Shown: positions 7,293 to 36,300, counted from the first letter of the stretch. The stretch is 64,000 bases of DNA from Deltaproteobacteria bacterium (GCA_040218735.1 JAVJQW010000041.1:407801-471800); one strand, 5' to 3'. Numbers and translations: made by a program. Notes: generated by a model from the letters alone, not told the origin.

Positions 7293-8375
7293 ATGCGCGA
7301 CGACCCGAGGGTGATCGTCAACCGCTGGACGCCTTCGGCCGACGGGGCCTTCGAACGCGCGCGGGTGCTCGCGGCCGGTGTTCACCCCGAGGGACTCGAC
7401 GCGGTGCGGGTGCGTTTCTCGCGCGCGGCGACGGCGCCGTTCGAGGGGGCGGCGCACCTCGTGAGCCTGATGCGCGGCGCGGCGCGCATGCGAGGTTGCG
7501 GGCTCGATCCGAGCACGCACGCGTCGGTCGTCGGCGACGTCGAGCTGGAGGCGGAGGCCGGGACCGAGCTGATCGTGGTGACGGGGCGGGCGCCCGAAGG
7601 TCGCGCTGCGCTCGTCGTGCGGCAGGAGCGCTTCCTCGCGGCGGCGTTGGACGCGGAGGGGCCGCTGCGCTGGATCCTCACCCCGCAGTACCTCAGCCGA
7701 CGCATCTTCCTGCACCACGACGCGGCGCTGTTGTCGCAGTCGGGCGCACCGGTGTCCTGGTTCCGCACCACGATGTTCGACACCACGGGCCTGCCGCCGA
7801 ACGACGACGGCGAGTCGGTGTTCCGCATGTCGTACAACCACCGGACGGAGCCGAACTTCTGCTACGACGTGCAGGGGCACGCGCGCGTTCGCTTCGCCGA
7901 GCACCCCTACGACGACGCCGCGCAGCGCTTCGGTCCGTGGCACGACCTCGACGGCGAGACGACCTACCACCTGAACGAAGCGCGCGGCGGCGCGGAGGAG
8001 GAGCACCGCGATGGGCACCCCCTGCGGAACCGCCACGAGGTCGCGAACGCCGGCGGGCACACCACGCTGTTCTGCCTGTTCGATCCGGCGCCGACCGGCG
8101 TCGAAGAGCACCACCCGGGCACGTACAGCGAGTACGGCGCGCTCGACGACGTGCTCGGCTCCGAACGCTACACGAAGAAGCTCGCGCGCCTGCGCGAGGT
8201 CGACGCACACATCGATACGTTGAGCCTCGCGGCGGCGCGCGGCGAACCGCTGGAGGGGACGGCGGCGTGGGCTTGGTACGAAGAGGCTTCGGAGCAGGCA
8301 CGCAACAACCGCGCGGCGCTCCTCGCGCGCCTCGACGAAGGGCGGCGCAAGATCGTCGCGCCGTGGGCCGAGTGA
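7293..8375 (+). CDS. Cupin protein with an ectoine synthase (EctC)-like domain
   Basis: Ordered motifs SRRIFL, MSYNHRTEPNFC, TTYHLN, NRHEV, LFCLFDPAPTGVEEH resemble EctC; start may be GTG at 7311. Confidence 0.6.
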   Translation: MRDDPRVIVNRWTPSADGAFERARVLAAGVHPEGLDAVRVRFSRAATAPFEGAAHLVSLMRGAARMRGCGLDPSTHASVVGDVELEAEAGTELIVVTGRAPEGRAALVVRQERFLAAALDAEGPLRWILTPQYLSRRIFLHHDAALLSQSGAPVSWFRTTMFDTTGLPPNDDGESVFRMSYNHRTEPNFCYDVQGHARVRFAEHPYDDAAQRFGPWHDLDGETTYHLNEARGGAEEEHRDGHPLRNRHEVANAGGHTTLFCLFDPAPTGVEEHHPGTYSEYGALDDVLGSERYTKKLARLREVDAHIDTLSLAAARGEPLEGTAAWAWYEEASEQARNNRAALLARLDEGRRKIVAPWAE

Positions 8376-8692
8376 TGCGGCGCTTCCTCTGGCTGCTCCT
8401 CTTCGTTGGCTGCACCGGCAGCGACGGCCCGAGCCTCGACCAGGTCGACTGCAGCGCATGCTCCGCCGACCAGGTCTGCTGGTACGACTACGACATCGAC
8501 GCCGACGCCTACCGCGGGCACTGCGCCGCTTGGCCGTCGTACTGCGACGCCGACCGTTCGTGTGAATGTATCGACACCCAGCGCGGCCCCGGCGGCGAAG
8601 CGTTCTGCGATGACTTCGGCGTGCAGAACAGCGACGTGTGCGAGGTGCACGAGGGGCGCCCGCTGGTGCGGTGTGAGACGAACCTAGGTTAG
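8375..8692 (+). CDS. Small Cys-rich lipoprotein, unknown function
   Basis: ATG overlaps the upstream stop (TGATG); MRRFLWLLLFVGC lipobox; about 10 further Cys in 105 aa. Confidence 0.75.
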   Translation: MRRFLWLLLFVGCTGSDGPSLDQVDCSACSADQVCWYDYDIDADAYRGHCAAWPSYCDADRSCECIDTQRGPGGEAFCDDFGVQNSDVCEVHEGRPLVRCETNLG

Positions 8693-9592
8693 GCGGGTGA
8701 GCTCGTCGAGGAGGCCGTAGCGCAGGCCTCGCGAGGACACCGTGAAGAACAGGCGTCGGTAGTGCGCCAGGATCCCCGCGACGATCGCGGCGCCCGCGAC
8801 GATGACGTCGGCGCGCCTCGGAGGGATCACGTCGCCGAGGTAGCGCTGCTCCAACGACTGCGCGCGCAGCTTCTCGAGCGACTGGTTCACCTCGAGCACC
8901 GTCAACCTCCGCCCTTCGGCGTGGTGGATGACCTCGCGCATGAACGCGATCTGCTTCGCGTGACCGAACAGGGCGAGGGCCGTGCCGGCGACGCCGATCA
9001 GCGGGACGTCCGGGTCGAGCTCGGGGGCCTCCGCGAGCGCGTCGCGTACCGCGCGGCGCAGCGCCTCCACGTCGACGTTCGTCGGCGGGTCGTTCGGCAG
9101 GAACCGCTCCGTCAGCCTCACGCCGCCCAGCGGCAACGACACCCGACGCTCGATCTCCCCCGCGCGCCCCACGGTGATCTCCGTGGAGCGACCGCCGATG
9201 TCGAACACCGCGACGCGCCCCGGGCCGTACAGCTTCGACGGCGCCACGAACGACAGCTCCGCCTCGCGGTCGCCGTCGATGATCGTGAAGTCGAAGCCAC
9301 GCTTCTTCGCGCCGCGCACCACCACGTCCGCGTTTTCGACGCCGCGCAGGCCCGCGGTGGCGACCGCCACCTCCCGCTCGACGCCGTGCTCCGCGAGCAC
9401 CGAGCGCACGTGGTCGAGCCCTTCGAACGTGCGACGAATCGCGCCGAGCCCGAGCCGACCGGTGCGCTCGACGCCCTCCGAAACGCGAACGAACAGCTCG
9501 CCCTCGTCGAGGAGGTCGAACCCGTCCGCGGTCGTCTGCGCGACGGCGTACTTCAGGGTGTTGGAGCCGAGGTCGACCGCGCCAATCCGCAC
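8684..9592 (-). CDS. ppx: Ppx/GppA-family exopolyphosphatase
   Basis: AVDLGSNT, VATAGLR, IIDGDREAELSF, FDIGGRSTE, RRADVIVAGA, GLRYGLL. Confidence 0.92.
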   Translation of the reverse strand: MRIGAVDLGSNTLKYAVAQTTADGFDLLDEGELFVRVSEGVERTGRLGLGAIRRTFEGLDHVRSVLAEHGVEREVAVATAGLRGVENADVVVRGAKKRGFDFTIIDGDREAELSFVAPSKLYGPGRVAVFDIGGRSTEITVGRAGEIERRVSLPLGGVRLTERFLPNDPPTNVDVEALRRAVRDALAEAPELDPDVPLIGVAGTALALFGHAKQIAFMREVIHHAEGRRLTVLEVNQSLEKLRAQSLEQRYLGDVIPPRRADVIVAGAAIVAGILAHYRRLFFTVSSRGLRYGLLDELTRLT

Positions 9593-9597
9593 GGTCG

Positions 9598-10293
9598 TTA
9601 CATCTTCTTGAGCTCGGCGCGCCGGTTCTTCTGGTGCGCGGACTCCGAGCCGCCCAGGTCGATCGGCCGCTCCTCGCCGTACGAGATGATGTGGATCTGC
9701 TTCTCGTTCACGCCCTGCGCGACGAGGTACTTGCTCACGCTGCGCGCGCGACGCTCCCCGAGGTGCAGGTTGTACTCGGTCGAGCCGCGGACGTCGCAGT
9801 GACCTTCGATCTCGATGTTCTCCGCCGGCGTCTTCGTGAGCACCGTCGCGACGCGTGAGAGCACCGCCTTGCTGTCCTCGCGGATCGTGGCGTCGTTGTA
9901 GTCGAAGTAGATCGTCTCCAACGCGCCCGCGAGGTCGAGCGTCGCGCTCGCGTCCGTCATCGCGTTGGCCTCCGGATCCGAGATGTCCTCTTCCTCCGCG
10001 ACCTGGTCACAGCCGGGCTTCGACGCCGCCTGCGCCTGCTCGGCGAGGCTCTTCGCCTGGTTCGCCTTCTCCTTGGCCGCGTCGACCTCGCCGTCCTCGG
10101 CGAGCTGACGCGCCTCGGCGATCGCCGCCTCCGCGGCCTGGTAGGTCTCCTTGGCGCAGTCGTTCGCCTTGCCGGCGCGCGCCTCGTCGATCGCCTTCAT
10201 CGCCGCCTCGAGCTCGAGGTCGGCCGTGTTCTTCGGGCACGCGTAGAGCGCGACCGCCATCATGAGCACCGCGATTCGTTTCATGATCCCCAT
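9598..10293 (-). CDS. pal: Peptidoglycan-associated lipoprotein Pal (OmpA-like domain, with helical N-terminal extension)
   Basis: Lipobox LYAC; IYFDYND, IEGHCDVRGSTEYNLHLGERRA, ISYGEERP, KNRRAE; downstream of tolB. Confidence 0.9.
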   Translation of the reverse strand: MGIMKRIAVLMMAVALYACPKNTADLELEAAMKAIDEARAGKANDCAKETYQAAEAAIAEARQLAEDGEVDAAKEKANQAKSLAEQAQAASKPGCDQVAEEEDISDPEANAMTDASATLDLAGALETIYFDYNDATIREDSKAVLSRVATVLTKTPAENIEIEGHCDVRGSTEYNLHLGERRARSVSKYLVAQGVNEKQIHIISYGEERPIDLGGSESAHQKNRRAELKKM

Positions 10294-10308
10294 CTCCTCA
10301 CCGTCCGG

Positions 10309-11619
10309 TCATCGGTACGGCGACCAAGCCGGCGTCGAGTAACCGCCGCCCTTCGTGATGCGCGTCTGGTTCGAACCGTCGACCGCCATCACCCAAACCT
10401 GCTGCCGACCCTCGCGCGTCGACGTGAACACGATGTGATTGCCGTCGGGCGAGAAGCTCGGCTCCTCGTTGTTCCCCTGGTCCTGCGTCAGACGTTTGAT
10501 CTCCTTGGTCTCCGCGTTGACCGTGAAGATGTCGAAGACGTTGCGCTCGTCGCGCGCCGTGAATGCGATCAGGTCCCCCTTCGGCGACCAGTCCGGCGTC
10601 TGGTTGTACGTCCCGCGATCCGTAATGCGCTTCACGCCCGAGCCGTCCGCGTTCATCACGAAGATGTGCGGGTCGCCCCACCGCGACGAGACAAACGCGA
10701 TGCGCTTACCGTTCGGCGCCCACGACGGAGACGAGTCGATGCCCCAGTCCTTCGTCAGACGTTTCAGGCCGGTGCCGTCCGCGTTCATCACGTAGACCTC
10801 GCTGTTGCCGTCGCGCGACAGCGTCAACGCGACCTTCGAGCCGTCGGGTGACATCGCGCCGCCCGTGTTGAGCCCACGCTCCCCGGACAGCAGCTTCGGC
10901 GCGCCGCCGCTCAGCGGGATCCGATACAGGTTCGGGTTGTGGCGGATGTACGAAGTGAACAGCAGCTCCGCGCCGCCCGCGCCCCACGACGGGAGCAGGT
11001 TGATCGACTTGTTGCGCGTGACCGGGCGCGCCGACGAGCCGTCGACGTCCATCACCCACAGCTCGCGCCCCGTCTTGGTCTTCCGGACCGCCGCGATCCG
11101 CGTCTGGAAGATGCCCTTGTTCCCCGTGAGGAACTCGACCACCTCGTCCGTGAACTTCCGCGCGAACACCTTCGCCTCGTCCGGCTTGCCCCGGTAGGAC
11201 TTGGCGAGGAGCTGACGGCCGCTCGCCACGTCGAAGAAGCGGAAGTCCGCCTTGAGCGCGCTGCCCGACTCGGTGACGCCGCACTTGATCAGACCCTCGG
11301 CGCCGACGTTGACCCAGTCCTCGAACTTGATCGACGCGGCCGCGAGCCCCTCGCGCGCCTGGTCGGCGAGGTAACTCTTCGGGTCGAGCACCTTGAACGT
11401 CGCCGCGAGCGTGAAGTTCCACCGGAGGGTGTCGGTGATCGACTCCGCGGACGGCGGCGCGGTACCGCCGGCCATGTTGCGCGCGTCGGGGATCGCGATC
11501 GGGTAGGGCCTGAAGTCAGGGCTACCGATCTCGATGACGGCACGGGTGCCGGTGCCCTGGGCAAAGGCGGCGGCGGGGCTGGCGATCAGGAAGAGCGAAG
11601 TGAATAGGAGTCGTCGCAC
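10309..11619 (-). CDS. tolB: Tol-Pal beta-propeller protein TolB
   Basis: Signal peptide from GTG 11619 (GAGG upstream), TolB_N-like region, PD40 repeats (SPSWAPNG, PDWSPKG, PSFSPDG, PAWSP). Confidence 0.92.
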   Translation of the reverse strand: MRRLLFTSLFLIASPAAAFAQGTGTRAVIEIGSPDFRPYPIAIPDARNMAGGTAPPSAESITDTLRWNFTLAATFKVLDPKSYLADQAREGLAAASIKFEDWVNVGAEGLIKCGVTESGSALKADFRFFDVASGRQLLAKSYRGKPDEAKVFARKFTDEVVEFLTGNKGIFQTRIAAVRKTKTGRELWVMDVDGSSARPVTRNKSINLLPSWGAGGAELLFTSYIRHNPNLYRIPLSGGAPKLLSGERGLNTGGAMSPDGSKVALTLSRDGNSEVYVMNADGTGLKRLTKDWGIDSSPSWAPNGKRIAFVSSRWGDPHIFVMNADGSGVKRITDRGTYNQTPDWSPKGDLIAFTARDERNVFDIFTVNAETKEIKRLTQDQGNNEEPSFSPDGNHIVFTSTREGRQQVWVMAVDGSNQTRITKGGGYSTPAWSPYR

Positions 11620-25203: not shown

Positions 25204-28032
25204 TCATTGGCACTCGGGGGGCGTGAGGTTCGCGTACGGCGTCTCGTTGGCGGCGAGGCCGGCCTGAATCTCCTCGTAGCAGGCCTTCACCTCGGCGGCG
25301 CGGGTCCACGTCCCCATCCAGCCGGTCGCGAGCTGACCGGTCTGCGTCACGCCGCTGAAGTCGACGAAGACCTTGAGGTGACAGTCGCGGCAGCTCTCGG
25401 CTTTGCACTCGTCCTGCGGTCCCCACGGGTTGCCGCACGGGGTGCCGCCGTTTTCGCCTTCCATGCACATGACGTAGTTCTTCCAGACGCCCGTGACCTC
25501 GGTCGGTTGGTTCGCGAAGTTCCCGGTGGAGCACGTCGGGTTGTACTCGACCTGCAGCGGGTTGCCGTCCTTGGTGAGCGTGTCGTTGCCGCGCGGGAAC
25601 CAGAACGTCGCCCAGTTCCAGTAGCTGAAGACCTGGTGGGTGCCCGACGAGATGTGGAAACCGACCAGGTACTGCCGCGGGCCGTCCGGGGGATCGTAGG
25701 AGTACAGGTCGTCCGGATCCGCGCTGGCCGGGAGCTCGCCGAGCGTGCGCCAGAAGCCCTTGTACACGCGCGCGTCCGTCTCGAACGCCGGCATCGAGTC
25801 GCGGAGTCCGGCGAAGCAGTACGAGACGCGGGCCGCCTGCGCGCAGGGGTCGAGGTAGCCGTTGCCGCGCAGCGTGTTGTGCGTGCTGCCGTTGTACATC
25901 GTGCGCTTCTGCGTGACGGGCCGGTCGCCGGGTTGCGGGAGGTCGAAGATCTCCTGGTAGGACGCGTACAGCATGTGCTGCGGCACGGAGTGCTCCCAGC
26001 GCGGGTAGCCGTTGACGAGCTCGGTCGCCTCGACGAGCGCGCACCACGCGGCGAGGCGCGACGTGGGGTCGACGTTCGGGTCGTCGCAGGAGGGCTTCAC
26101 GTGCTGAATGCCACCCGCGGCGCCGCCGTCGAGCGGAGGCTTCGGCTTCGCGATCTGCGTGGTGTGCGGCGGGGGCGGGGGCGGGAGGCCGCCGGGCGAG
26201 GTGTCCGTCGGACGGATGTAGATGCCGCCGGCGATCGGGTCCGCGATGGCGACGAAGTCCGGGGTACCGCAGCCGCTCGGTGCGCCACCGTCGAGCTGTT
26301 TGGAGAGGCGTCGCGCGAGGTCCTCGAGGAGCGACGCGTAGCTCAGCGCGGAGTCGTGCGCGCGGCCGGTGGCGACGACGCGACGCGAGCCGCGATCGAG
26401 GCCGGTTGCGGCCGGACGGACGAGGAGGAGATCGACCTTCACACCGGACGCGGGGTCCACGACGTTCGCGGGGACGGGGAGGAAACCTTCGTTGGCGGAT
26501 GCGTTCCACTGAAAAGATGCGATGTAGCTCGCGGACGCCGCGAAGACCGGACAGAGGTGACGGGCGAGGGTGTCGTCGCGAACCTCGCGGACGAGCCCGA
26601 AGGTGGAGGTCGGGTGGGCTTCGGCGTCGGTCGCTTCGAAGAGGCGCGGACACTTGTCACCGCTCGACGGCACCGCGCCGACGCGGAGGCGCACCAGCGT
26701 GGAGCTGCTGCCGGGGAGTCGTTCCATCCGGACGTCGCCGAAGTAGAAGTCCGTGCCTTCCGTGGGCAGGTCGCTGCCGTGCATCGACAGCTCGTCACCT
26801 TCGACGAGCGTGGTCGCGGATCCGATCGGCCGGCCATTGCCGTCGGTGAGTGAAGCGATGGTCGGCGCGGTGCCGAGGCCACACGCGGGCGCGGGGAAGC
26901 TGCTGTAGCCGGGCGCAGGGAAGGGCGCCGCGGGGGGCTTGAGCCCGAAGCGGACGAAGCGCTTCAGGCGCGAGAGGTCGGCGGAGTCGATGTCGCCGTC
27001 GGCGTCGACGTCGGCCGCCGCGACACACGCGACGTCGTCGGTGCCCGCGAGGCGCGCCGAGAGCGCGTGGACGTCGTCGTTGTCGACGCTGCCGTTTTCG
27101 TCGACGTCGCCGCGGATGAACGGCGCGCCGGCGTAGGTCACGCGACCGCCCGTGGCGATGGAGCGGTCGGCGGTGTCGAGGACGATCGCGCCGCTCGCGA
27201 ACGCGGCGGACGGACGCGGCGCGACGACCTGAAGGCGGCTGTCGCTCTGCGTGAGGATCTGCGCGGGCTCCCCAGCGACACGAACGCCGAGGACCTGCGC
27301 GAGGTGCCCGCCGAACACGGTGAGCGTGGTGCCGGTCGGCGACGCGCTGGTTTCGGTGCACTGCGCGTCGGGCGGGAGCGCGGAGTCGATCAGCGTGACG
27401 TTTGCGAAGCCGACCTCACCGGCGGCGGCGAGCGGCGCGCCCTGCGCGGCGGAGACCGTGAGTGTCGCGGACGCGAGCGCGGTGCCGGACGCGTCGTGCG
27501 TGAGCAGGTTGACGCCGTTCGAAGACGCCTCGAGCAGGCTGCCGCTGCGCGACAGGCGAACGGCGACGGGGAGCGAGACCGGGACGGGCGTCGAAGCCAC
27601 GGTGGTGCCGTCGCGCGCTTCGGCGCTGAGCCACACGCTGCCGGCGGCGCGCGAGACGGTGATGCGGAAGCGGGGCGCGTCGGGCGCGCGGACGATCGTC
27701 CGTGCTTCGAGGCCGCCTTCGTTGCCTTCGTCGACGTCGGTGATCAGCGCGGAAACGACGAAGTCGTCGGTGATGTCCTGGCCGACGACGCGGATCGCAT
27801 CGTCGGGGCCGTAGCCGTCGCCGTCGCCGCACAGGCGGAAGCCGTTGCCGCCCGTCGTGCCGGTCGTGCCGGTGGGTATCGATGCGCCGAGCGATTCGCC
27901 GACGTCGTGCGCGTACCAGTCGGCGATCGCGCTGCTCGCGAAACACGGGCTCGCGCCCATCGTCTGTGCCTCGGCGTTAGGGGTGATTGCGCAGGTCGCG
28001 ATGCCGAGTGCGCACAGAACTCGTAGTCTCAT
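25204..28032 (-). CDS. Large secreted modular protein: lectin-like N-terminus, IPT/TIG, dockerin-like pair, C-terminal CxxCH domain
   Basis: RBS GAGGAGG, ATG 28032, signal peptide ending AEA; RGDVDENGSVDNDD...AADVDADGDIDSADL; LVGFHI...WNWATFW...SCRDCH. Confidence 0.8.
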   Translation of the reverse strand: MRLRVLCALGIATCAITPNAEAQTMGASPCFASSAIADWYAHDVGESLGASIPTGTTGTTGGNGFRLCGDGDGYGPDDAIRVVGQDITDDFVVSALITDVDEGNEGGLEARTIVRAPDAPRFRITVSRAAGSVWLSAEARDGTTVASTPVPVSLPVAVRLSRSGSLLEASSNGVNLLTHDASGTALASATLTVSAAQGAPLAAAGEVGFANVTLIDSALPPDAQCTETSASPTGTTLTVFGGHLAQVLGVRVAGEPAQILTQSDSRLQVVAPRPSAAFASGAIVLDTADRSIATGGRVTYAGAPFIRGDVDENGSVDNDDVHALSARLAGTDDVACVAAADVDADGDIDSADLSRLKRFVRFGLKPPAAPFPAPGYSSFPAPACGLGTAPTIASLTDGNGRPIGSATTLVEGDELSMHGSDLPTEGTDFYFGDVRMERLPGSSSTLVRLRVGAVPSSGDKCPRLFEATDAEAHPTSTFGLVREVRDDTLARHLCPVFAASASYIASFQWNASANEGFLPVPANVVDPASGVKVDLLLVRPAATGLDRGSRRVVATGRAHDSALSYASLLEDLARRLSKQLDGGAPSGCGTPDFVAIADPIAGGIYIRPTDTSPGGLPPPPPPHTTQIAKPKPPLDGGAAGGIQHVKPSCDDPNVDPTSRLAAWCALVEATELVNGYPRWEHSVPQHMLYASYQEIFDLPQPGDRPVTQKRTMYNGSTHNTLRGNGYLDPCAQAARVSYCFAGLRDSMPAFETDARVYKGFWRTLGELPASADPDDLYSYDPPDGPRQYLVGFHISSGTHQVFSYWNWATFWFPRGNDTLTKDGNPLQVEYNPTCSTGNFANQPTEVTGVWKNYVMCMEGENGGTPCGNPWGPQDECKAESCRDCHLKVFVDFSGVTQTGQLATGWMGTWTRAAEVKACYEEIQAGLAANETPYANLTPPECQ

Positions 28033-28068
28033 TTGGTCGTATCCTCCTCGGGTCACCGGACCCGCGAC

Positions 28069-28116
28069 GACATGGGTCGCGACCGCTTCGGATCTGATCT
28101 CGGACTGCAAAAAATC
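28069..28116 (-). promoter_or_regulatory. Candidate ECF promoter: T-tract, TCAGAT-N18-ATGTC
   Basis: Minus strand GATTTTTTgcagtccgaGATCAGATCCGaagcggtcgcgacccATGTC; same core and spacing as the 34056-34105 copy. Confidence 0.7.
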
Positions 28117-28134
28117 TGCGACCATCCTCTCGCT

Positions 28135-30780
28135 TTGAAACGCGGCGGAGGGATCGTGCTCTTGTGCGCCGCGCTGGCCTGCACCGAGCGACGCCCTGCG
28201 CCCGAGCCCGAGCTGGTCGACCTCCCGATGCGCGGGTGCGTGCACGTGAGCCGCGTGTGCGAAGTCGGCGAAGCGCCGCTGGTGTTCTACGCCGAGGACG
28301 CCAAGGAAGTACGCGCTGCGCTCGACGGGACGGAGCTGACGACGCGAACCGCGACGCTCGCGACGGGCGTGCGCGTGTCGGTCGACGTCCCCGCGCGGCG
28401 AGGCACGCTGACGTTGTCGATCCTGGGTGACGTGCCGCGGCTCATGCGCGTGTCGGTCGATGCGGTGCCGGCGGACGTCGCGGTGCTCACGGCGCCGACG
28501 GATCGCACTTCGGGTGCGCGGCGCACGCAGGATTCATCGCGCGCGGAGGCGATCGCGAAGTTCGCCGAGGCGCGCCGACTCTACAAGGAGGGGGACGCCG
28601 AGGCGGCGATGGCCGCGCTCACGAAGTCCGCGGAGCTCGCGGACCGCGCGAGCTTGCGATCGCAGGCGGCGCGGAGTCGTCTGCTCGCAGTGTGGATCGC
28701 GGCCCGCAGCCTGCGTGACTTCGAGGCGGCGCGCTCCACGCTCGACCGCGTCCCAAAGCGGTCGCCGTACGACAGTGAGGCGGATGTCCTCCGCGCATTT
28801 CACGTCGCGGTCGTAGCGAGTGAGGTGGGTGATCGTCGCTCGGCGCTCGCAGCGGCCGGTCCGGCGCGGATGCTCGCACGAACGCTCGGTCTGAACGTGC
28901 TGGCGACACGGCTCGAGATGCGGGAGCTGAACACGCTCCACGAGCTGGGGCGTTTCGACGAAGCAGCGACGCGTTGGCGGAGCTTGGTACGACAGGGAAC
29001 GGGAGATGGGTGTCTCGACGTCCTCGCGACCGGCAACCTCGGCTGGTCGCTCATGCGGGCTTCGAAGGGATCCGAGGAAGCACGTGTCTGGCTCGAGGCT
29101 GCGCTCGCCGCTGACGAATCGCGCTGCACGGACCCCCCTCCCACGCGTCGCGCGAATCTCCTCGTCAACTCCGCGCTGCTGGCGCTCGAACGAAAGGAGC
29201 TCGACCGCGCGCAGGCGGCGCTCGACTCGAGCCGCCGGTCGCCGATGCTGCCCGAACATGCGCAGTGGGCGATGTTGATCGACGCCTCCATTGCCCTGGA
29301 GCGCGGAGACGTGAAGCGAGCCCTCGCGGACTTCTGGGCCCTCGCGGAGCGGGCGGACGCGACGCGTTTGACCGAAATCGCGTGGCACGCCTGGGTCGGC
29401 GTAGGGCGCAGCCGGCAAGCACTCGGTGATCTCGACGGCGCCGCAGAGGCGTACGCAGCGGCCGAGGCCCGGACGGCGCGGGAAGCCGTGCTCGTCCCGG
29501 TCGACGGAGGGCGGCAGCATCTCTACGGCGATCGCGAAGAGAGCGCGCGTCGGTGGGTTGCGCTGGAGATCGACCGCGGTCGCCCGAAGGCTGCGTTCGA
29601 TGTGGTGCGTCGCGCTCGACGACGCACGCTCGCCTCGATCGAGCTCGCGCGCCGGATCGCCACGTTGGATGGGGCGTCGCGTACACGGTGGGAGCGGGAC
29701 GTGGCTCGATATCGTCGGACGCGCCAAGCCCTCGAAGACCGGAGCGCAACACTCTGGCTGCTGCCCAAGTCCGAGCGCGCGAAGCAGGAAGCCGAGGTCG
29801 AACGTTCGGTCGCCGAGGCGCGCCGCGCTCTCGACGAAGCGATCGGCAAGTTGGCGCGCACGGATGTGTTCTCCACGCTCGCGAGCGAACGCGGCGATCC
29901 GACCGCCGCACCGTTCCGTTCGCCGGCCGAGGGTGAGGTGATGGTCGCTTGGTATCCGCTCGCCGAGGGTTGGGCGGTGTTCGCGGTCAGCCGCGAGGGC
30001 GTGGTCGTCGAGAGGCTGGTCGGGGAGCCCACGCCGGACGCGATCGTGGGCAAGCTCCGCGGACCCATCGCGGCGGCTCGGCGTGTGACGGTTCTGGCTC
30101 CAGGGGGCGTCGACCGCTTTGCGCTTCACCTCGGTCGACTCGGCGGAGAGCCACTCGCCCGACGCAAGCTCGTCGCGTACGCCCTCGACCTCCCACCGCG
30201 CGAGGAACGTTCGAATGACCGAAAGAGCGCACTCGTCGTCAGCGATCCACGCGGCGACCTACGGGCGGCTCGGGACGAGGGCACCCGCGTCGCGACGAAC
30301 CTCTCGTCCCGCGGCTGGTCCGTATCTCGAGCCCAGTCCGACGAAGCGACACGGCGCCGCCTCCTCGTCGGGCTCACGCGGGTGGAGCTCCTCCACTACG
30401 CGGGTCACGGCACGTTCGGGGGCCACGAGGGTTGGGAGAGCAGCCTGCGTTTGGCGGACGGTCGTGTGACGGTGGGCGACATCCTCACGTCGACCGCCGC
30501 GCCCGCGACGGTGCTCCTCCTCGGGTGTCGTACGGCGGAGAGTAGCGACGTCGGGGCGAGCGCGGGGCTGGGGATCGCCCAGGCCTTCGTCCTCGCCGGG
30601 GCCCGCGCGGTCGTCGCGGCGACGCGCGAGATCGACGACGAGGCCGCCGCCGAAGTGTCGGCCCGAATTTCTTCCGCCCTCGATGACGGATCCGACCTCC
30701 TCACCACCTATCAACGGTCTGTACACGGAACCGACGACGACGTGCCCGAACGGGACGCCATCGTGGTCCTGACCCCCTGA
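28135..30780 (+). CDS. TPR-CHAT caspase-like protease, probable lipoprotein
   Basis: TPR-like helices; CHAT motifs VVSDPRGDL, LHYAGHG (His), VLLLGC (Cys), GIAQAFVLAGARAVVA; lipobox-like AALAC after TTG 28135 (ORF is open from 28033). Confidence 0.88.
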   Translation: MKRGGGIVLLCAALACTERRPAPEPELVDLPMRGCVHVSRVCEVGEAPLVFYAEDAKEVRAALDGTELTTRTATLATGVRVSVDVPARRGTLTLSILGDVPRLMRVSVDAVPADVAVLTAPTDRTSGARRTQDSSRAEAIAKFAEARRLYKEGDAEAAMAALTKSAELADRASLRSQAARSRLLAVWIAARSLRDFEAARSTLDRVPKRSPYDSEADVLRAFHVAVVASEVGDRRSALAAAGPARMLARTLGLNVLATRLEMRELNTLHELGRFDEAATRWRSLVRQGTGDGCLDVLATGNLGWSLMRASKGSEEARVWLEAALAADESRCTDPPPTRRANLLVNSALLALERKELDRAQAALDSSRRSPMLPEHAQWAMLIDASIALERGDVKRALADFWALAERADATRLTEIAWHAWVGVGRSRQALGDLDGAAEAYAAAEARTAREAVLVPVDGGRQHLYGDREESARRWVALEIDRGRPKAAFDVVRRARRRTLASIELARRIATLDGASRTRWERDVARYRRTRQALEDRSATLWLLPKSERAKQEAEVERSVAEARRALDEAIGKLARTDVFSTLASERGDPTAAPFRSPAEGEVMVAWYPLAEGWAVFAVSREGVVVERLVGEPTPDAIVGKLRGPIAAARRVTVLAPGGVDRFALHLGRLGGEPLARRKLVAYALDLPPREERSNDRKSALVVSDPRGDLRAARDEGTRVATNLSSRGWSVSRAQSDEATRRRLLVGLTRVELLHYAGHGTFGGHEGWESSLRLADGRVTVGDILTSTAAPATVLLLGCRTAESSDVGASAGLGIAQAFVLAGARAVVAATREIDDEAAAEVSARISSALDDGSDLLTTYQRSVHGTDDDVPERDAIVVLTP

Positions 30781-30793
30781 CGCGAGAACGAAC

Positions 30794-32701
30794 ATGAAAC
30801 GCTTGAACAACGCCCTTTGGATTGCCCCTCTCCTCGTCGCCGCCTGTGGCGCGCCCGAGGAGCCCGTCGAGACCGCGGAGGCGGGCATCACGCCCGCACA
30901 GCAGAGTCACTGCGACGCGTTGCGCGCCGCCGGCGCGACCTCGCTACCCTGGTATTGCGGTGGCTTGCAGAGCACCTTGCCGCCGGAGCTCGACCGCGCG
31001 TGCCCCGACAACCAGTGGGTCGGCTACCGCCTGACCTCCGCGCCTTGCCCGGTCGTCACGGCGCCGCCGGCCCTCGGGACCTGGAACAAGACCGAGCCCT
31101 TCACGGGCTCCATCCCGGGCCTCGAGCGCTGGTGTGTGTACCGCTGGGAGCCTGCGGTGGTCGGCACGCCGCCCGACACCTCGGTGCTCCCCGATACGCC
31201 GGACCTCCGTCTGGAGCGGGACTGTGAGGTCGTGAGCGCCCACGCGCGCCTTCCGAACGGTGCGTGGCAGCCCCTGTCGACCGCTTATCTCGAGCAGATC
31301 GATGTCCCGGAGATCGCCGGCCTGCCGTTCCAGCAGACGACGCGCGTCGCGATCGTCGACAGCTCGCTGGAGCGCGTCGGGGCGGTGAGCGAAGGCCTGT
31401 CGCGTCACGGCGAGGCGATGGGCTCGGTCGTCCACAACCTGACATGCCTCGGACCGAACGGTGCGCCGTGCGGCGCGGAGCTATCGAATCACCTCGCGCT
31501 CCCGCGCATCGACACCGAGACCTACGGAGAGCGCGGCGGGCACTACGGCACGCAGTCGGAGCTCGGCGTCGCGATGTTCCAGGCGATCTTCTCCTGGCGC
31601 TTCGGACCGACTTGGACCCCCGGCTCTCGTTTCATCATGAACCTGAGCGTCGGCTGGAACGAGGCCTACGGCGGTGCACCGTCGAACCCGAGCCTGCCCG
31701 CGAAGCTGGTCTACCAGGTTGCGCAGTACGCCTCCTGCAACGGCGCGCTGATGATTGCGGCGTCCGGCAATCGCTCGACCGACCTCACTCCGGGGCCGAT
31801 CTTCCCGGCGGGTTGGGAGCGCGCGACGCCCTTCTGCTCCGACGCGCCGCCCAACGCCTACGACCCGCTGGTGCACGCCGTGGGCGGAGTCGATGGGCGT
31901 GACTCCACACTCGCGCTCTCGCGGATCGCCTCGCAGCCGCGCCTCGTCGCACCGGCCGCGCAGGTGAACGTGGAGCAGCCCGTGCTCAACAACGTCCCGA
32001 CCGTGATCGCGAGCGGGACGTCCTTCGCCGCGGCGGGGGTTTCGGCGACCGCCGCGCTCGTGTGGAGCCTGCGCCCCAACCTCCAGCCGTACCAGGTGAT
32101 GCAGGTCGTCTATCAATCCGCGATCCCCGTGGGCGGCGCGTCGGACTTCGGGTTGAACAACCAGGCCTTCGCGCGGCGTCGTGTCTCGGTGTGCCGCGCG
32201 GTGACGCTCGCCTGCCTGGGCCTCGCCTGCCCGCCGCTCCCCGCGTGTGAGAACCGTGCAGCGGGCGTCGACGCCACGGCAGACTTCGCGACGGCGATTT
32301 CCATCACCTACCCCGGGTTGATGGGACCGCAGAACGCGGTGCCGGGGCCGAGCGCAACGAATCCGAGCGACCTCGATCCCTTCAAGGAGCCGTGGGTCGT
32401 CCCGCAGCCCGACGAGGAGCCGTGTCCGCTTTGTGGGATCACCGCTGCTACTTTCGAAGGTCAGATCGATCAGGACATCGCGCAGTCCGGCGCGACCATC
32501 ACCAACAGCACGGTCATCGTCACGACGTTCCAGGGCGACGAATTCGTCATCGCGGTCGACATCCCCGACCCCACCCAGCCCTTCGAGATCGAGCTGGCTC
32601 AGCTGCAGGATCAGGACCTGAAGACCGGGAAGTTCGAATTGACGACGGACGAGAAAGGTGAGGAAACCGTCCGCGTCAGTGAGCTCTTCATCAAACCGTA
32701 G
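30794..32701 (+). CDS. S8 subtilisin-like serine protease, lipoprotein
   Basis: Lipobox VAAC; VAIVDS (Asp), HGEAMG (His), AASGN (oxyanion Asn), SGTSFAAAGV (Ser). Confidence 0.88.
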   Translation: MKRLNNALWIAPLLVAACGAPEEPVETAEAGITPAQQSHCDALRAAGATSLPWYCGGLQSTLPPELDRACPDNQWVGYRLTSAPCPVVTAPPALGTWNKTEPFTGSIPGLERWCVYRWEPAVVGTPPDTSVLPDTPDLRLERDCEVVSAHARLPNGAWQPLSTAYLEQIDVPEIAGLPFQQTTRVAIVDSSLERVGAVSEGLSRHGEAMGSVVHNLTCLGPNGAPCGAELSNHLALPRIDTETYGERGGHYGTQSELGVAMFQAIFSWRFGPTWTPGSRFIMNLSVGWNEAYGGAPSNPSLPAKLVYQVAQYASCNGALMIAASGNRSTDLTPGPIFPAGWERATPFCSDAPPNAYDPLVHAVGGVDGRDSTLALSRIASQPRLVAPAAQVNVEQPVLNNVPTVIASGTSFAAAGVSATAALVWSLRPNLQPYQVMQVVYQSAIPVGGASDFGLNNQAFARRRVSVCRAVTLACLGLACPPLPACENRAAGVDATADFATAISITYPGLMGPQNAVPGPSATNPSDLDPFKEPWVVPQPDEEPCPLCGITAATFEGQIDQDIAQSGATITNSTVIVTTFQGDEFVIAVDIPDPTQPFEIELAQLQDQDLKTGKFELTTDEKGEETVRVSELFIKP

Positions 32702-33344
32702 CGCCCCCGACGGGGCCTCGGATCTCGAGCTCGTCCAACAGGCCCTCGGTCGCGACGCCGCCGCCTGTCGCCGCCTGGTGCGGCGGCTGACGCCCGTCAT
32801 CCAGCGCCGGGTGAACGGCGCCCTGATCCGGCACCACCGCATCGACCGGCAGGAGACCCTCGACCTCACGCAGGACGTCTTCCGCCTCCTCTTCGACAAC
32901 GACGGGCGCGTCCTACGCACCTGGGATCCGGAGCGCGGGCTGTCGCTGGAGAACTTCGTCGGCCTCGTCACCCGGCGCGAGGTGAACGCCATCCTCTCCT
33001 CCGGGCGACGCAGCGCGTGGGCCGAAAAACCCACCGCCCCGGACGACCTGGAGCCCCAGGCCGCCGCGCCGGAGGCCGAGGTCCGGACGCTGTCGAAGGA
33101 TCTCCTCCGCGAGGTCCTGAAGCGCCTCGAGCAGCGCCTGAGCACCAAGGGCCTCGCGCTGTTCTACGCGCTGTTCGTGCAGCACCTGGACGTCGAGACC
33201 ATCTGCGCCGAGCACGACATGAAGCGCGACGCCGTCTACACCTGGCGCGCGCGGCTCAAGAAGACCGTCGCGACGATCTCCGAAGAAATCGCGTCAGATG
33301 ACGGCCTGTCACCACCAACGTCACGAGCGGGAGCATCCGGATGA
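32679..33344 (+). CDS. ECF-type RNA polymerase sigma factor
   Basis: DLELVQQALGRD..A.RRLV, DLTQDVF (region 2), LRTWDPERGLSLENFV, region 4 HTH VETICAEHDMKRDAVYTWRARL; start 32658 or 32679. Confidence 0.88.
   Translation: MSSSSNRSAPDGASDLELVQQALGRDAAACRRLVRRLTPVIQRRVNGALIRHHRIDRQETLDLTQDVFRLLFDNDGRVLRTWDPERGLSLENFVGLVTRREVNAILSSGRRSAWAEKPTAPDDLEPQAAAPEAEVRTLSKDLLREVLKRLEQRLSTKGLALFYALFVQHLDVETICAEHDMKRDAVYTWRARLKKTVATISEEIASDDGLSPPTSRAGASG
33294..33322 (+). promoter_or_regulatory. Candidate ECF promoter TCAGAT-N18-ACGTC inside the sigma gene 3' end, upstream of the anti-sigma
   Basis: gcgTCAGATgacggcctgtcaccaccaACGTC, 18 nt before ATG 33341; same spacing as the other two copies. Confidence 0.55.
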
Positions 33345-34057
33345 ATCGCGACGAAGATCTGCTCGAAGCCCTCGGCGAAGCCGCAAAGGACCGCGACGAG
33401 GAGGATGACCGCTGGTGGGACGCGGTCGCGGCGAAGGACGCCTCGGCGCTGCCCTCCGAGGAGGCCGTCGAAGCGCTGAGGCCCCTCGACGACGCGGAGA
33501 TGGACGGCATCGCCGACATGCTCCTCGCGGAGGAGAAGCCCGCCGTCGAAGCGGATGAGGGCGGCGCGACGGTCGTCTCGATCTTCTCCGCCCGCCGCTG
33601 GGCCGCCCCCGCCGGCGCGCTCCTCGCGGTCGCCGCCGCGGCGCTGCTGTTCCTGAGCACGCCGAACGACGCGATGCTCCCGCGCTACGCGCTCGACGTT
33701 CGCTCCGGCGAGAAGGTCGTCCGCGGCGACGACCACACCCAGACCGAGATCACCGCGTACTCCGACGGCGCGACGTTCGACTTCGTCCTCGTCCCCGACG
33801 AGCGGGTCACCGGAGACGTCGCGCTCGCCGCGGTGGTGATCGGCGACGGCGGGGAGAAGGTTTGGGACGCCCCCTTCACCCGCCTGGACGGCGGCACGCT
33901 CCGCGTCCGCGGCGTCGTCGGCGAGCAGCTCGACCTCGCTCCGGGCGACTGGCGCGTCGTGTTCTTCGTCGGCCCGAAGGACCGCCTCCCGACGACGCCC
34001 ACGCACGAAACGCCGTCCGGCGTGCAGCGCTTCGAAGCCCAGATCCGCGTCCGCTGA
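33341..34057 (+). CDS. Putative membrane anti-sigma factor
   Basis: ATGA-coupled to the sigma gene; acidic helical N-terminus, one TM (WAAPAGALLAVAAAALLFL), C-terminal beta-sandwich. Confidence 0.72.
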   Translation: MNRDEDLLEALGEAAKDRDEEDDRWWDAVAAKDASALPSEEAVEALRPLDDAEMDGIADMLLAEEKPAVEADEGGATVVSIFSARRWAAPAGALLAVAAAALLFLSTPNDAMLPRYALDVRSGEKVVRGDDHTQTEITAYSDGATFDFVLVPDERVTGDVALAAVVIGDGGEKVWDAPFTRLDGGTLRVRGVVGEQLDLAPGDWRVVFFVGPKDRLPTTPTHETPSGVQRFEAQIRVR

Positions 34058-34105
34058 TTTTTTTTCCCTCCGCGGATCAGATCCGCACCCCCCACCGCCA
34101 ATGAC
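34056..34105 (+). promoter_or_regulatory. Candidate ECF promoter: T-tract, TCAGAT-N18-ATGAC
   Basis: GATTTTTTTTccctccgcgGATCAGATCCGcaccccccaccgccaATGAC, 44 nt before ATG 34150. Confidence 0.7.
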
Positions 34106-34149
34106 CGACCGAAGCGCTCGCACCGAGCGCTCGGAAGGAAGAAAACAAA

Positions 34150-36300
34150 ATGTCACGTACCCAGCTCCGGCACGGCCGGTTCATCGCATCGATCTGCGCC
34201 GGTCTGGCGGCGCTCACCTTCACGGGTTCGGCGTTCGCCGAGCCGTGGGCCGGCGACGTCACCGGCGAGACGCCCTGGACCACCGCGACCGGCGACTTCG
34301 ACAACGACAACCAGCGCGACCTGGTCTTCGGTTTCCCGAAGCGCTCGGGCAACGGCCTGGTCGGCATCTGGATCAACGACGGAGACCCGCGCCACAGCGC
34401 GGTCGAAAACGGCAGCAACAACGGCGCCGCCTACTTCAACCTCGTCCAGAACAACTTCCTCACGATCTTCCCCGCGTCGCCCGTCATGCAGGGCTCGCCG
34501 GTCTACAACCAGGCCCAGCCGCTCTTCGGCGCGAGCGTCGTGACCGGTGACTTCGACAACGACGGCAAGGACGACATCGCGTTCGGCGCACCCGGCGCGA
34601 CGATCAACGGCCGCTCCAACGCCGGCGCGGTCGTCGTCATCTACGGCAAGGACCTCGGCAACCCGAACGCGAACATCCCGCCGACCCCCGGCGCTGCGGT
34701 CACGTTCACGCAGGACTCACCCGGCGTCGGCTCCTCCGCGGAGACCAACGACTACTTCGGTGAAGTGCTCGCGGTCGGTGACTTCGACTGCAACGGCGTC
34801 GACGACCTCGCGATCGGTGTTCCGCGCGAGGACATCGGCTACAGCGCGCCGGACGCCGGCTACGTGCACGTCCTCTACGGTCAGACGAACAGCGGCCTCA
34901 CCGGCGTCGGCAGCTCCACGCTGTGGCAGGGCGGCGGCCCGCTCTCGGACACCTACGAGGCCAACGACCACTTCGGCGCCGCGCTCGCGGGCGGGGCCTT
35001 CGCGCCGTCTTCGTACTTGGGCCAGCGCTGGTGTGACAGCCTCGCGATCGGCGTGCCCGGCGAAGACTTCACGTACAACTACCAGACCCGCGTCGACGCC
35101 GGCCGTGTGCACCTCATCATCGCGCCGAGCTACGCGCAGGGCGGTTACTTCACGGGCTTCAAGCCGATCACCGAAGGCTTCGAGTTCCTCCTCGACCAGT
35201 CCACGAACGGCGTCTACTCCTCCCCCGAGAACAACGACACGTTCGGCTCGGCGCTCGGTCGTGTGACCGGATCGCGGGCTGCTCGCGGCAGCCCCACCCC
35301 ATTCATCGACGCGCTGTGGATCGCCGCCGCCGGCGAGTCCTGCAACAACTGTGTGGACGGCGTCGTGCACCGCCTCGACTGGTACCTCGGCAGCTCCTGG
35401 ACCGGCTCCAGCGTGCGCCCCGACATCCTGGAGACCGAGACCGGCGTCGTCGTGGAGAAGGGCGACCAGTTCGGCCGCTGGTTGCAGTACATCCCGGAAG
35501 GCATCGACCCGCAGACCGCCGAGATGTTCGTCGTCTCGCCCGGCACCAACAAGTACACGTCCTCCGAGAGCGCCGCGTGGCCCGCGGGGCGCGCCAACGC
35601 GAACCGCTACATGGCGTACGACGGCTTCGTGCAGGCGGCCGACGACCTCGGCTTCGTGCTGATCATCCCCGAGTGGGAGGACTACAACTTCGGCAACGAC
35701 TTCCAGCCCAACTTCAACGCGGGCGGCTACCGTGCGCTCCTCGGTCGCGACATCCGCGCCGACTGGTGGATCGACCGCATCGTGGACCGCTACGCAAACG
35801 TCGGTCTCGGCGACGGACGGATGCACCTCTTCGGTCACTCGGCTGGCGGACAGTTCGCGATTCGCTACGCGCTGCAGCGCCCCGAGCGGATGCTGAACGT
35901 CATCGTCGAGTCGTCGGGCAGCATGCCGCGTCCCACGATCGACGAGAACCCGAACGACGGCATCGAGCCGACGCCGAGCCCTTGGCGCGGTGGCTTCGGC
36001 AACATCTGGCTCCCGGCGGCGAACGGTTGGCCGGCGCTCGTGTTCTTCCCCAACGAGGCGGGCGCGGCGTGGGCCGCGGCGAACCGCCCGATCAGCATCG
36101 TGGCCGGGTCGCTCGAGGGCGCTTCGCACACGGACGTGGTGATGGACTGGATGGACGACGTCGCGACGACGTGGGGCCCGCACCAGATGACGTACTGCGA
36201 AGTGCAGGGCGTGGACCACGACTCCAAGAGCGCGCACCGCTCCGCGCTCAAGACCGTGTGGCCGAGCCTGTCGTTCCCGGGCGCGCCCGCGTGCAACTGA
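34150..36300 (+). CDS. Secreted FG-GAP (integrin-alpha-like propeller) protein with C-terminal alpha/beta hydrolase
   Basis: Signal peptide; GDFDNDNQRDLVFG, GDFDNDGKDDIAFGAPG, GDFDCNGVDDLAIGVP; nucleophile elbow GHSAGG and a C-terminal His (VDHDS). Confidence 0.85.
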   Translation: MSRTQLRHGRFIASICAGLAALTFTGSAFAEPWAGDVTGETPWTTATGDFDNDNQRDLVFGFPKRSGNGLVGIWINDGDPRHSAVENGSNNGAAYFNLVQNNFLTIFPASPVMQGSPVYNQAQPLFGASVVTGDFDNDGKDDIAFGAPGATINGRSNAGAVVVIYGKDLGNPNANIPPTPGAAVTFTQDSPGVGSSAETNDYFGEVLAVGDFDCNGVDDLAIGVPREDIGYSAPDAGYVHVLYGQTNSGLTGVGSSTLWQGGGPLSDTYEANDHFGAALAGGAFAPSSYLGQRWCDSLAIGVPGEDFTYNYQTRVDAGRVHLIIAPSYAQGGYFTGFKPITEGFEFLLDQSTNGVYSSPENNDTFGSALGRVTGSRAARGSPTPFIDALWIAAAGESCNNCVDGVVHRLDWYLGSSWTGSSVRPDILETETGVVVEKGDQFGRWLQYIPEGIDPQTAEMFVVSPGTNKYTSSESAAWPAGRANANRYMAYDGFVQAADDLGFVLIIPEWEDYNFGNDFQPNFNAGGYRALLGRDIRADWWIDRIVDRYANVGLGDGRMHLFGHSAGGQFAIRYALQRPERMLNVIVESSGSMPRPTIDENPNDGIEPTPSPWRGGFGNIWLPAANGWPALVFFPNEAGAAWAAANRPISIVAGSLEGASHTDVVMDWMDDVATTWGPHQMTYCEVQGVDHDSKSAHRSALKTVWPSLSFPGAPACN

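Follow-up and report, generated by a model that had tools for sequence, protein, structure and literature searches.

The closest described relatives of the system treated here are small circuits built around extracytoplasmic function (ECF) sigma factors. In Myxococcus xanthus the ECF sigma factor DdvS is paired with DdvA, a transmembrane anti-sigma factor with a periplasmic TPR-CHAT part, and four local promoters are described as DdvS-dependent (PMC6061681, PMC11506125); many ECF promoters share an AAC core in the -35 element and a CGT core in the -10 element (PMC6061681). In Escherichia coli the sigmaE-dependent promoter rseA P3 is situated within the rpoE coding region and drives rseABC (PMC8595263), and in the ECF54 context ECF sigma factors are found beside carboxypeptidase, subtilase and CHAT proteins, with proteolytic control proposed (PMC8999054). 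Here we analyse a window, that is, a whole stretch of 64,000 nt from a Deltaproteobacteria bacterium (positions 407801–471800 of contig C58, in a genome of 11.6 Mb, 68.8% G+C and 70 contigs), in which a plus-strand block of four genes, coding for a TPR-CHAT protein, an S8 peptidase, a divergent ECF sigma factor and a membrane anti-sigma factor, is flanked by two genes for signal-peptide proteins. Three short bipartite sites in and around this block are, with a probability of about 0.72, promoters read by the polymerase carrying the ECF sigma factor encoded at 32658–33344. Most likely, this sigma factor switches on the two neighbouring secreted-protein genes together with its own inhibitor. The type of circuit is ordinary, and the protease-linked family in which it would occur has been little studied. 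The sites are:

28069–28116, minus strand: promoter-like site 1, upstream of the dockerin/TIG gene (cargo gene 1)
33294–33322, plus strand: promoter-like site 3, with TCAGAT at 33294–33299 (the codons TCA GAT), 15 nt, and CCAACGTC at 33315–33322
34056–34105, plus strand: promoter-like site 2, upstream of the FG-GAP/alpha-beta-hydrolase gene (cargo gene 2)

As in the myxobacterial DdvS/DdvA pair, the locus ties an ECF sigma factor and a membrane anti-sigma factor to a TPR-CHAT protein, and would have a small local regulon with a shared bipartite promoter. The likeness extends to a homologous locus (L087), where a 1211-aa open reading frame (ORF) following the sigma gene (7672–11304, plus strand) fuses an anti-sigma-like N-terminus with a TPR-CHAT part, as in DdvA. 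Unlike DdvA as described, here CHAT is exported as a protein of its own, there is an additional S8 peptidase, and the N-terminus of the anti-sigma factor cannot form a CHCC zinc site, since its residues 1–70 contain neither Cys nor His. Likewise, the reported DdvS promoter is GTAA-N16-CGT and its cargo CBASS/CRISPR, whereas the window has ATCAGATCCG-N15-CCnATGwC and secreted dockerin and FG-GAP proteins, and its sigma gene, unlike that of DdvS, shows no obvious autoregulation. With ECF54, compared by genomic context alone, the locus shares an ECF sigma factor conserved beside subtilase and CHAT proteins; however, ECF54 is described as actinobacterial and without an anti-sigma factor, whereas the present module occurs in Myxococcota and Thermoanaerobaculia with a conserved anti-sigma-like membrane protein.

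An earlier, sequence-only reading of this DNA had proposed a local sigma regulon starting from an identical 11-mer, GATCAGATCCG, at 28089–28099 (minus strand) and 34075–34085 (plus strand), and its letters and coordinates are exactly as claimed. In site 1, GATTTTTT (28116–28109) is followed by a 9-nt gap, the -35 block GATCAGATCCG (28099–28089), a 15-nt spacer ending in CCC (28076–28074) and the -10 block ATGTC (28073–28069); the start codon of cargo gene 1 (ATG 28032) is 36 nt further on. Site 2 consists of GATTTTTTTT (34056–34065), which begins within the anti-sigma stop codon, a 9-nt gap, the -35 block GATCAGATCCG (34075–34085), a 15-nt spacer ending in CCA (34098–34100) and the -10 block ATGAC (34101–34105), with the start codon of cargo gene 2 (ATG 34150) 44 nt on. 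The same reading had placed GATTTTTT ahead of both copies, ATGTC or ATGAC exactly 15 nt after them, and the gene starts some 40 nt away, all of which agrees with these measurements. The T-runs (28109–28114 on the minus strand and 34058–34065) each stop 9 nt short of the 11-mer, and both sites point outward from the cassette. The sequences between the blocks are unrelated in the two sites, whereas the blocks are equally spaced and have the same polarity toward the start codons. This combination of conserved blocks, fixed spacing, free spacers and gene-directed polarity indicates protein contacts rather than common descent, and argues against terminal repeats of a mobile cassette.

The full pattern is confined to this locus. 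Alone, the 11-mer is unremarkable, with 50 exact copies in the genome, mostly in coding DNA; allowing one mismatch, the window contains six matches against 2.0 expected, a number reached by 4 of 100 shuffles. Conversely, TCAGAT-N18-AYGWC has three matches in the window against 0.03 expected, and none of 100 shuffles reaches three. A scan of both strands of the genome (23.2 Mb) with GATCAGATCCG-N15-ATGWC found all 16 positions matched at two sites only, sites 1 and 2, with no site at 15/16 and ten at 14/16. Over both strands of the 11.6 Mb there are 244 stretches of at least six consecutive T. In the window as well as in homologous cassettes, the sites have a -35 and a -10 part, a fixed spacer and an orientation toward genes, and are repeated near the sigma gene, which is the layout of ECF-dependent promoters. 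Sites 1 and 2 are quite probably promoters of this circuit, and the proposal that they are the -35/-10 elements of the adjacent ECF sigma factor fits all the computed evidence, including the identity of the sigma factor, its anti-sigma factor and a related motif found de novo, all described below.

Site 3, the third copy pointed out in the sequence-only reading (TCAGAT-N18-ACGTC), is present among the final codons of the sigma gene; 18 nt separate its end from the anti-sigma start codon (ATG 33341), and site 2 is 780 nt away. Compared to GATCAGATCCG-N15-ATGWC it matches merely 10 of 16 positions, a level that some 55,000 genomic sites attain, and we took it initially for a chance match. This view was reversed by the pattern common to sites 1 and 2, by the position of the motif in homologues and by rare codons. 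Sites 1 and 2 share TCAGAT-N15-CC[AC]ATG[AT]C, and site 3 is one of two genomic sites matching 13 of its 14 positions. At the 3′ end of homologous sigma genes, a simple regular expression has eight matches, seven of them in one reading frame, and the family matrix described below has 12, the majority placed exactly 52 nt ahead of the stop codon. An in-frame TCA GAx/GGx occurs in the tail of 26 of 87 distinct sigma ORFs and, in 22 of these 26, sits 12–13 codons past a WRxR anchor. The codons involved are rare in this genome: TCA accounts for 2.5% of Ser and GAT for 14.2% of Asp codons, and TCA-GAT for 19 of 11,353 Ser-Asp pairs. In one homologous locus (L061) the sigma stop codon comes directly after TCAGAA, yet CGAATA is retained at the same spacing in non-coding DNA. 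Additionally, the last ~15 residues of the sigma factor have a low predicted local distance difference test (pLDDT) value in the AlphaFold2 model. With the motif kept at the same position, in rare codons and in a low-confidence tail, its conservation is most readily accounted for by selection on the DNA, where it would serve as a promoter for the anti-sigma gene. Three attempts at a de novo motif search on the 3′ ends of the sigma genes returned only coding conservation (the DAVYAWRSRL region, the anti-sigma start MSDDELL and the helix after WRSRL), and it is for this reason that we identify the embedded motif from its position, its codon use and the upstream-trained matrix.

From these comparisons we incline to see in site 3 a putative promoter for the anti-sigma gene, and the negative feedback postulated in the sequence-only reading gains support from the conserved position and the rare codons. 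The arrangement would resemble rseA P3, as it is described, in having an anti-sigma promoter inside the sigma gene and read by that sigma factor, with a feedback separate from sigma synthesis. However, rseA P3 starts 228 nt before rseA and gives a long regulated leader, whereas site 3 is within the last 17 codons and its leader would be ~10–15 nt; also unlike rseA P3, the embedded site is kept family-wide, spelled in rare codons of a tail modelled with low confidence. A coding-embedded copy such as site 3 would escape the usual motif searches of intergenic regions.

The homologous loci mentioned come from Myxococcota and Thermoanaerobaculia metagenome-assembled genomes; 57 such loci were found in other genomes using a 7-row alignment, and a search for related loci with a 36-row alignment or a single protein found none. 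When 77 sigma-upstream regions of other genomes were submitted to expectation-maximisation seeded with random subsequences, GTCAGAT-N16-(C)GTAGACC emerged among the best solutions; once refined, it scores more than 8 bits in ~25 of the regions. It ranked third by likelihood, and its refinement began from the random seed that had produced it; the solution of top likelihood was a low-information GC-rich pattern, not the GTCAGAT motif. The resulting family consensus, GTCAGA(A/T)-N16-(G/A)(T/A)A, recurs at four places: ahead of the sigma gene, within its last codons just upstream of the anti-sigma gene, ahead of the S8 gene and ahead of flanking genes. When the 57 loci were scanned with the matrix (matches of at least 11 bits, positions relative to the sigma start), sense-strand matches numbered 19 in -400 to -1, the region on which the matrix was trained, 12 in +400 to +799 (the sigma 3′ end), five in +1400 to +1799 (the end of the anti-sigma gene), 12 in +4000 to +4399 (before the S8 gene) and seven in +6200 to +6999 (before the next genes). 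Most other 200-nt bins held 0–1 matches, and never more than three, and the antisense strand had 0–1 per untrained bin. The comparison with homologous cassettes that the sequence-only reading had called for thus returned a related bipartite motif at the sigma 3′ end and before the S8 and flanking genes.

Family sites are located 45–75 nt ahead of ATG codons with ribosome-binding sites. Individual loci show the motif right after the anti-sigma gene (L051 and L078, whose genes are ordered as in the window) or, as GTCAGATCC-N16-ATGGC, before an S8-sigma-anti-sigma operon (L039). Paralogous cassettes in the same genome carry further variants: on contig C42, CTGTAAGATCC is found ahead of the sigma paralogue and ahead of the next gene, and on contig C67 three genes have GTGAGATCT...TTGTAG, GTTAGATTC...TTGTAT and GTGAGGTCC...TTGTAG upstream, summarised as GT(G/T)AG(A/G)T(C/T)...TTGTA(G/T). 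In an unbiased count of 8-mers in the sigma-upstream regions of loci L011–L098, AT-rich words dominate and AGCGAACC, GTGAACCT and TGAACCTC are enriched on the sense strand; the enriched words hint at a more canonical, GAAC-type -35 in some members of the family. Judged from these motifs, the family appears to have a local multi-promoter regulon of the kind proposed in the sequence-only reading.

The identification of the sigma factor came from profile and structure comparisons. The product of 32658–33344 has no Pfam sigma domain (Sigma70_r2 or Sigma70_r4) even at E values up to 10, its match to TIGR02937 (E=6.1e-5, 22.7 bits) is under the cut-off of 42.9, and no solved relative was found with the single sequence. 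A profile of 36 sigma homologues matches the solved ECF sigma factor 9isn_F (E=6.6e-11) over profile positions 11–202 of 212. The AlphaFold2 model is all-helical with a pLDDT of 86.8, the linker being, like the tail, less confident, and the top Foldseek matches are SigL, SigH, AlgU, SigE, BldN and CnrH, all with probability 1.00; their TM scores are low (0.28–0.35) because the domain arrangement differs. The protein is a genuine but divergent ECF sigma factor, in which sigma2 and sigma4 are recognised and which does not pass the curated family models.

The product of 33341–34057 has no match among Pfam and TIGR-type family models. Its layout comprises an acidic N-terminal domain, one hydrophobic segment (approximately residues 86–104, as read from the sequence) and a C-terminal extracytoplasmic domain, and among 74 distinct ORFs that follow sigma homologues, 53 are its relatives; members of this family typically begin with MSDDELL. 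A model of the complex with the sigma factor scores 0.85 against 0.01 for the best control, a mark attained by 58 of 80 solved complexes and 2 of 110 mismatched pairs, although sigma/anti-sigma complexes have already been solved and the pass may partly reflect likeness to them. At least 92% of contacts are common to the runs, with a partner pLDDT of 77 or more. In the model the first 85 residues of the anti-sigma factor dock between sigma2 and sigma4, with residues 4–64 contacting sigma residues 25–72 and 138–201. We therefore predict a cognate class I anti-sigma factor, whose binding is supported, not proven, by the model.

Several observations weigh against the three sites being promoters of this sigma factor. 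Sites 1 and 2 lack the usual ECF AAC and CGT cores and read instead TCAGATCC and ATG(T/A)C; among the three, only site 3 has the CGT core (ACGTC). The family matrix, built without this genome, gives site 1 4.1 bits in register (shifts by one base in the two directions give -22 and -33), site 2 2.7 bits and site 3 3.0 bits, ranks 78, 138 and 120, respectively, of ~128,000 window positions, so that the matrix alone does not single them out at the top of the window. Their -10 block, CCnAYGWC, differs from the family (G/A)(T/A)A just before the invariant A, and it is mainly this replacement of the family G/A by C that lowers the scores. Of 63 matrix matches of at least 16 bits in the genome, four are near sigma paralogues against 1.15 expected (P ~0.03), a weak enrichment, and a simple regular expression matches 7 of 57 upstream regions in sense and 3 of 57 in antisense. 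The 13/14 count for site 3 is somewhat post hoc, because the CCM extension of the -10 block was picked after viewing all three sites. Likewise, no convincing copy of the motif was found on the plus strand ahead of CHAT-S8-sigma, that is, upstream of the operon of the sigma gene itself. Finally, an A>G change at 28111 breaks the T-run of site 1 in related strains (contigs of runs X3 and X4, ~98.9% identical), so the T-tract may not matter and its role is doubtful. Strains X2, X3 and X4 also have A instead of C at 28119; strain X3 diverges by ~1.1% (73 differences in 6601 nt), and the 40 of 127 strain differences listed include none within the -35, spacer or -10 blocks, which is uninformative for the motif blocks.

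A further point on that side is that at least 13 paralogues with a related motif class could in principle read the sites. That the sites are promoters for another sigma factor, either one of the 13 paralogous ECF factors or a housekeeping one using the T-tract as UP element, would also agree with a sigma gene that has no obvious autoregulated promoter. Nevertheless, we consider it improbable, because no sigma-70-like hexamer pair was found in 27800–34400 and the exact variant is confined to the surroundings of this cassette and the inside of this sigma gene, whereas other cassettes have their own variants; the closest sigma paralogue, on contig C64, is 51% identical. A different possibility arises from the -35 block of site 2, which lies inside a perfect 7+1+7 palindrome, GCGGATCAGATCCGC (34071–34085), whose reverse strand matches the 11-mer with one mismatch at 34073–34083. 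The shared core could accordingly be an operator for a dimeric regulator that binds GATC-N-GATC and controls both flanking genes, all the more since GATCNGATC is present in both sites. However, site 1 is symmetric only in its 4-bp GATC arms, the -10 block and the T-run are asymmetric with the same polarity toward the genes, and the related motif elsewhere (GTCAGAA/T...CGAAGACC) is non-palindromic and strongly strand-specific, which makes an operator very unlikely.

The inverted orientation of sites 1 and 2, bracketing exactly the CHAT-S8-sigma-anti-sigma block, together with the multi-copy nature of the module (14 sigma paralogues in the genome), would also be expected of inverted terminal repeats or duplication remnants left by a cassette insertion and devoid of a present regulatory role. 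We give this little credence: the likeness is limited to three short blocks at fixed spacing with unrelated spacers, no transposase or recombinase gene exists in or beside the cassette, and paralogous cassettes share merely 38–51% sigma identity and are therefore old; moreover, a third copy lies inside the cassette, and in homologous cassettes the motif precedes genes at equivalent positions. As regards the T8 run after the anti-sigma stop codon, it might serve an intrinsic terminator of the cassette operon as U-tract, and would then resemble the T6 of site 1 by coincidence; the minimum-energy fold does show an irregular G+C-rich hairpin (34020–34054) before UGAUUUUUUUU. This appears unlikely, since that fold is no better than shuffles (z = -1.55; 16 of 200 shuffles fold as well), as is the case for the RNA folds of the site regions generally; the scan called no intrinsic terminator there or at the other sites, and site 1 shows the identical 9-nt distance to its T-run with no upstream same-strand gene to terminate. 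A dual role of the site 2 T-run, as terminator and promoter part, is possible and compatible with the promoter reading.

A fourth, weak match had been proposed ahead of the S8 gene in the sequence-only reading. Its letters (ACGGATCCG-N15-ATCAA, 30686–30714) are indeed there, but no test supports a promoter there: the family matrix gives -20 bits in the proposed register and -2.2 at best nearby. It is very probably a chance match; many homologues carry the motif before the S8 gene, and this cassette shows none there. With respect to the sigma gene itself, the best plus-strand match before the CHAT gene reaches 8.1 bits at 28087 (28087–28118) and is the reverse reading of the GATC-N-GATC core of site 1, TTCGGATCTGATC...AAAAAATC, with the A-run as -10, directed at the CHAT gene. 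From its sequence, this could be a back-to-back promoter for the CHAT-S8-sigma operon.

As a separate observation, the sole other near-match to the extended pattern (13/14 and 12/14) is a three-copy repeat in called genes (contig C22, 9392, minus strand; C65, 6432, minus strand; C47, 5133, plus strand) that contains TCAGATGCTGAACCTCGAAACCCAACG(T/G)CAC and may be a repeated mobile gene.

The genes of the cassette and its flanks are:

25204–28032, minus strand: cargo gene 1, 942 aa, signal peptide, dockerin and TIG (Pfam Dockerin_1, E=4e-8; TIG, E=2.6e-4)
28156–30780, plus strand: TPR-CHAT (caspase-like) protein, 874 aa (Pfam CHAT, E=5.6e-19)
30794–32701, plus strand: secreted S8 subtilase-type peptidase, conserved in the module (Pfam Peptidase_S8, E=6.5e-15)
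32658–33344, plus strand: divergent ECF-type sigma factor, 228 aa, starting at GTG 32658 or GTG 32679
33341–34057, plus strand: anti-sigma-like membrane protein, 238 aa, of a family conserved after sigma homologues and with a complex model
34150–36300, plus strand: cargo gene 2, 716 aa, signal peptide, FG-GAP repeats and a C-terminal alpha/beta-hydrolase-like part (Pfam FG-GAP, E=1.6e-24; Abhydrolase_1, E=1.1e-5, slightly under the cut-off)

A GGAGGA ribosome-binding site precedes the start codon of cargo gene 1. The S8 gene begins 13 nt past the CHAT gene, the sigma gene overlaps the end of the S8 gene, and the start codon of the anti-sigma gene overlaps the sigma stop codon (33342–33344) as ATGA, a junction repeated in most homologous loci that suggests translational coupling on top of the embedded promoter. 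Which codon starts the CHAT gene is ambiguous: a strong GGAGG precedes GTG 28156, which leaves almost no signal peptide, and the alternative TTG 28132 yields MKRGGGIVLLCAALAC, which resembles a lipoprotein signal peptide, and is without a ribosome-binding site.

The module is repeated in this genome and recurs in others. A search with the sigma factor gave 18 matches within the same genome (ten with 32–51% identity) and relatives in 14 of the 41 genomes searched, its own included. The genome contains at least 14 sigma paralogues (contigs C64, C14, C67, C17, C42 with two, C54 with two, C50, C59, C61 and C56), 13 of 14 within 12 kb of a TPR-CHAT paralogue; their cassettes often add an S8 gene and an anti-sigma relative, and several carry their own motif variant. 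Among the 57 loci of other genomes, 46 have a CHAT gene, the remaining 11 being mostly on short contigs. The genes are most often arranged as sigma, anti-sigma, CHAT, S8, and the order of the window (CHAT, S8, sigma, anti-sigma) is also seen in L051, L053, L066 and L086. No true orthologue of the sigma factor was found, the closest homologue found being that of L039, with 53% identity.

In the mechanism that we propose, the sigma factor would normally be held at the membrane by the anti-sigma factor (33341–34057). Upon an envelope signal, the exported TPR-CHAT protein, the S8 protease or both would probably help to destroy the anti-sigma factor, by analogy with what is described for DdvA (PMC11506125). 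The freed sigma factor would then direct outward transcription from sites 1 and 2, turning on the dockerin/TIG and FG-GAP/hydrolase genes, with each flanking site offering the -35 ATCAGATCCG, a 15-nt spacer and the -10 CCnATGwC, and possibly a T-tract that aids polymerase binding. From the weaker, embedded site 3 it would drive the synthesis of more anti-sigma factor, and this negative feedback would end the response. The start sites, the dependence on this sigma factor as opposed to its 13 paralogues and the roles of the T-tract and of the proteases are what we infer here, and the term regulon is to be taken in this predicted sense.

Local ECF regulons with a shared bipartite promoter, an anti-sigma promoter in a sigma gene and the ECF, CHAT and subtilase context are all already known from the systems cited at the outset. 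The main text of PMC7826278 names neither CHAT nor subtilase. What appears new is this motif, its being written in rare codons in hosts of two phyla, and a set of paralogous cassettes that differ in their variants. More tentatively, and with considerable doubt, the genome might hold ~14 protease-gated ECF cassettes, each with a private promoter dialect, here ATCAGATCCG-N15-CCnATGwC, that serve as insulated circuits for different secreted cargo. In this cassette the sigma factor would drive its inhibitor and its cargo, not itself, a pulse-type design with negative feedback alone, and the inhibitor promoter would reside in rare tail codons across two phyla.

These results provide a proposed, testable wiring diagram for a widespread sigma/anti-sigma/CHAT/S8 switch, with three putative promoters, two outputs and one feedback arm, and a promoter class for the family that can be read from genomes. 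The paralogous cassettes, with their distinct variants, constitute a natural panel of possibly orthogonal sigma/promoter pairs, and the cassettes are an entry point to what exported caspase-like and subtilase proteases sense.

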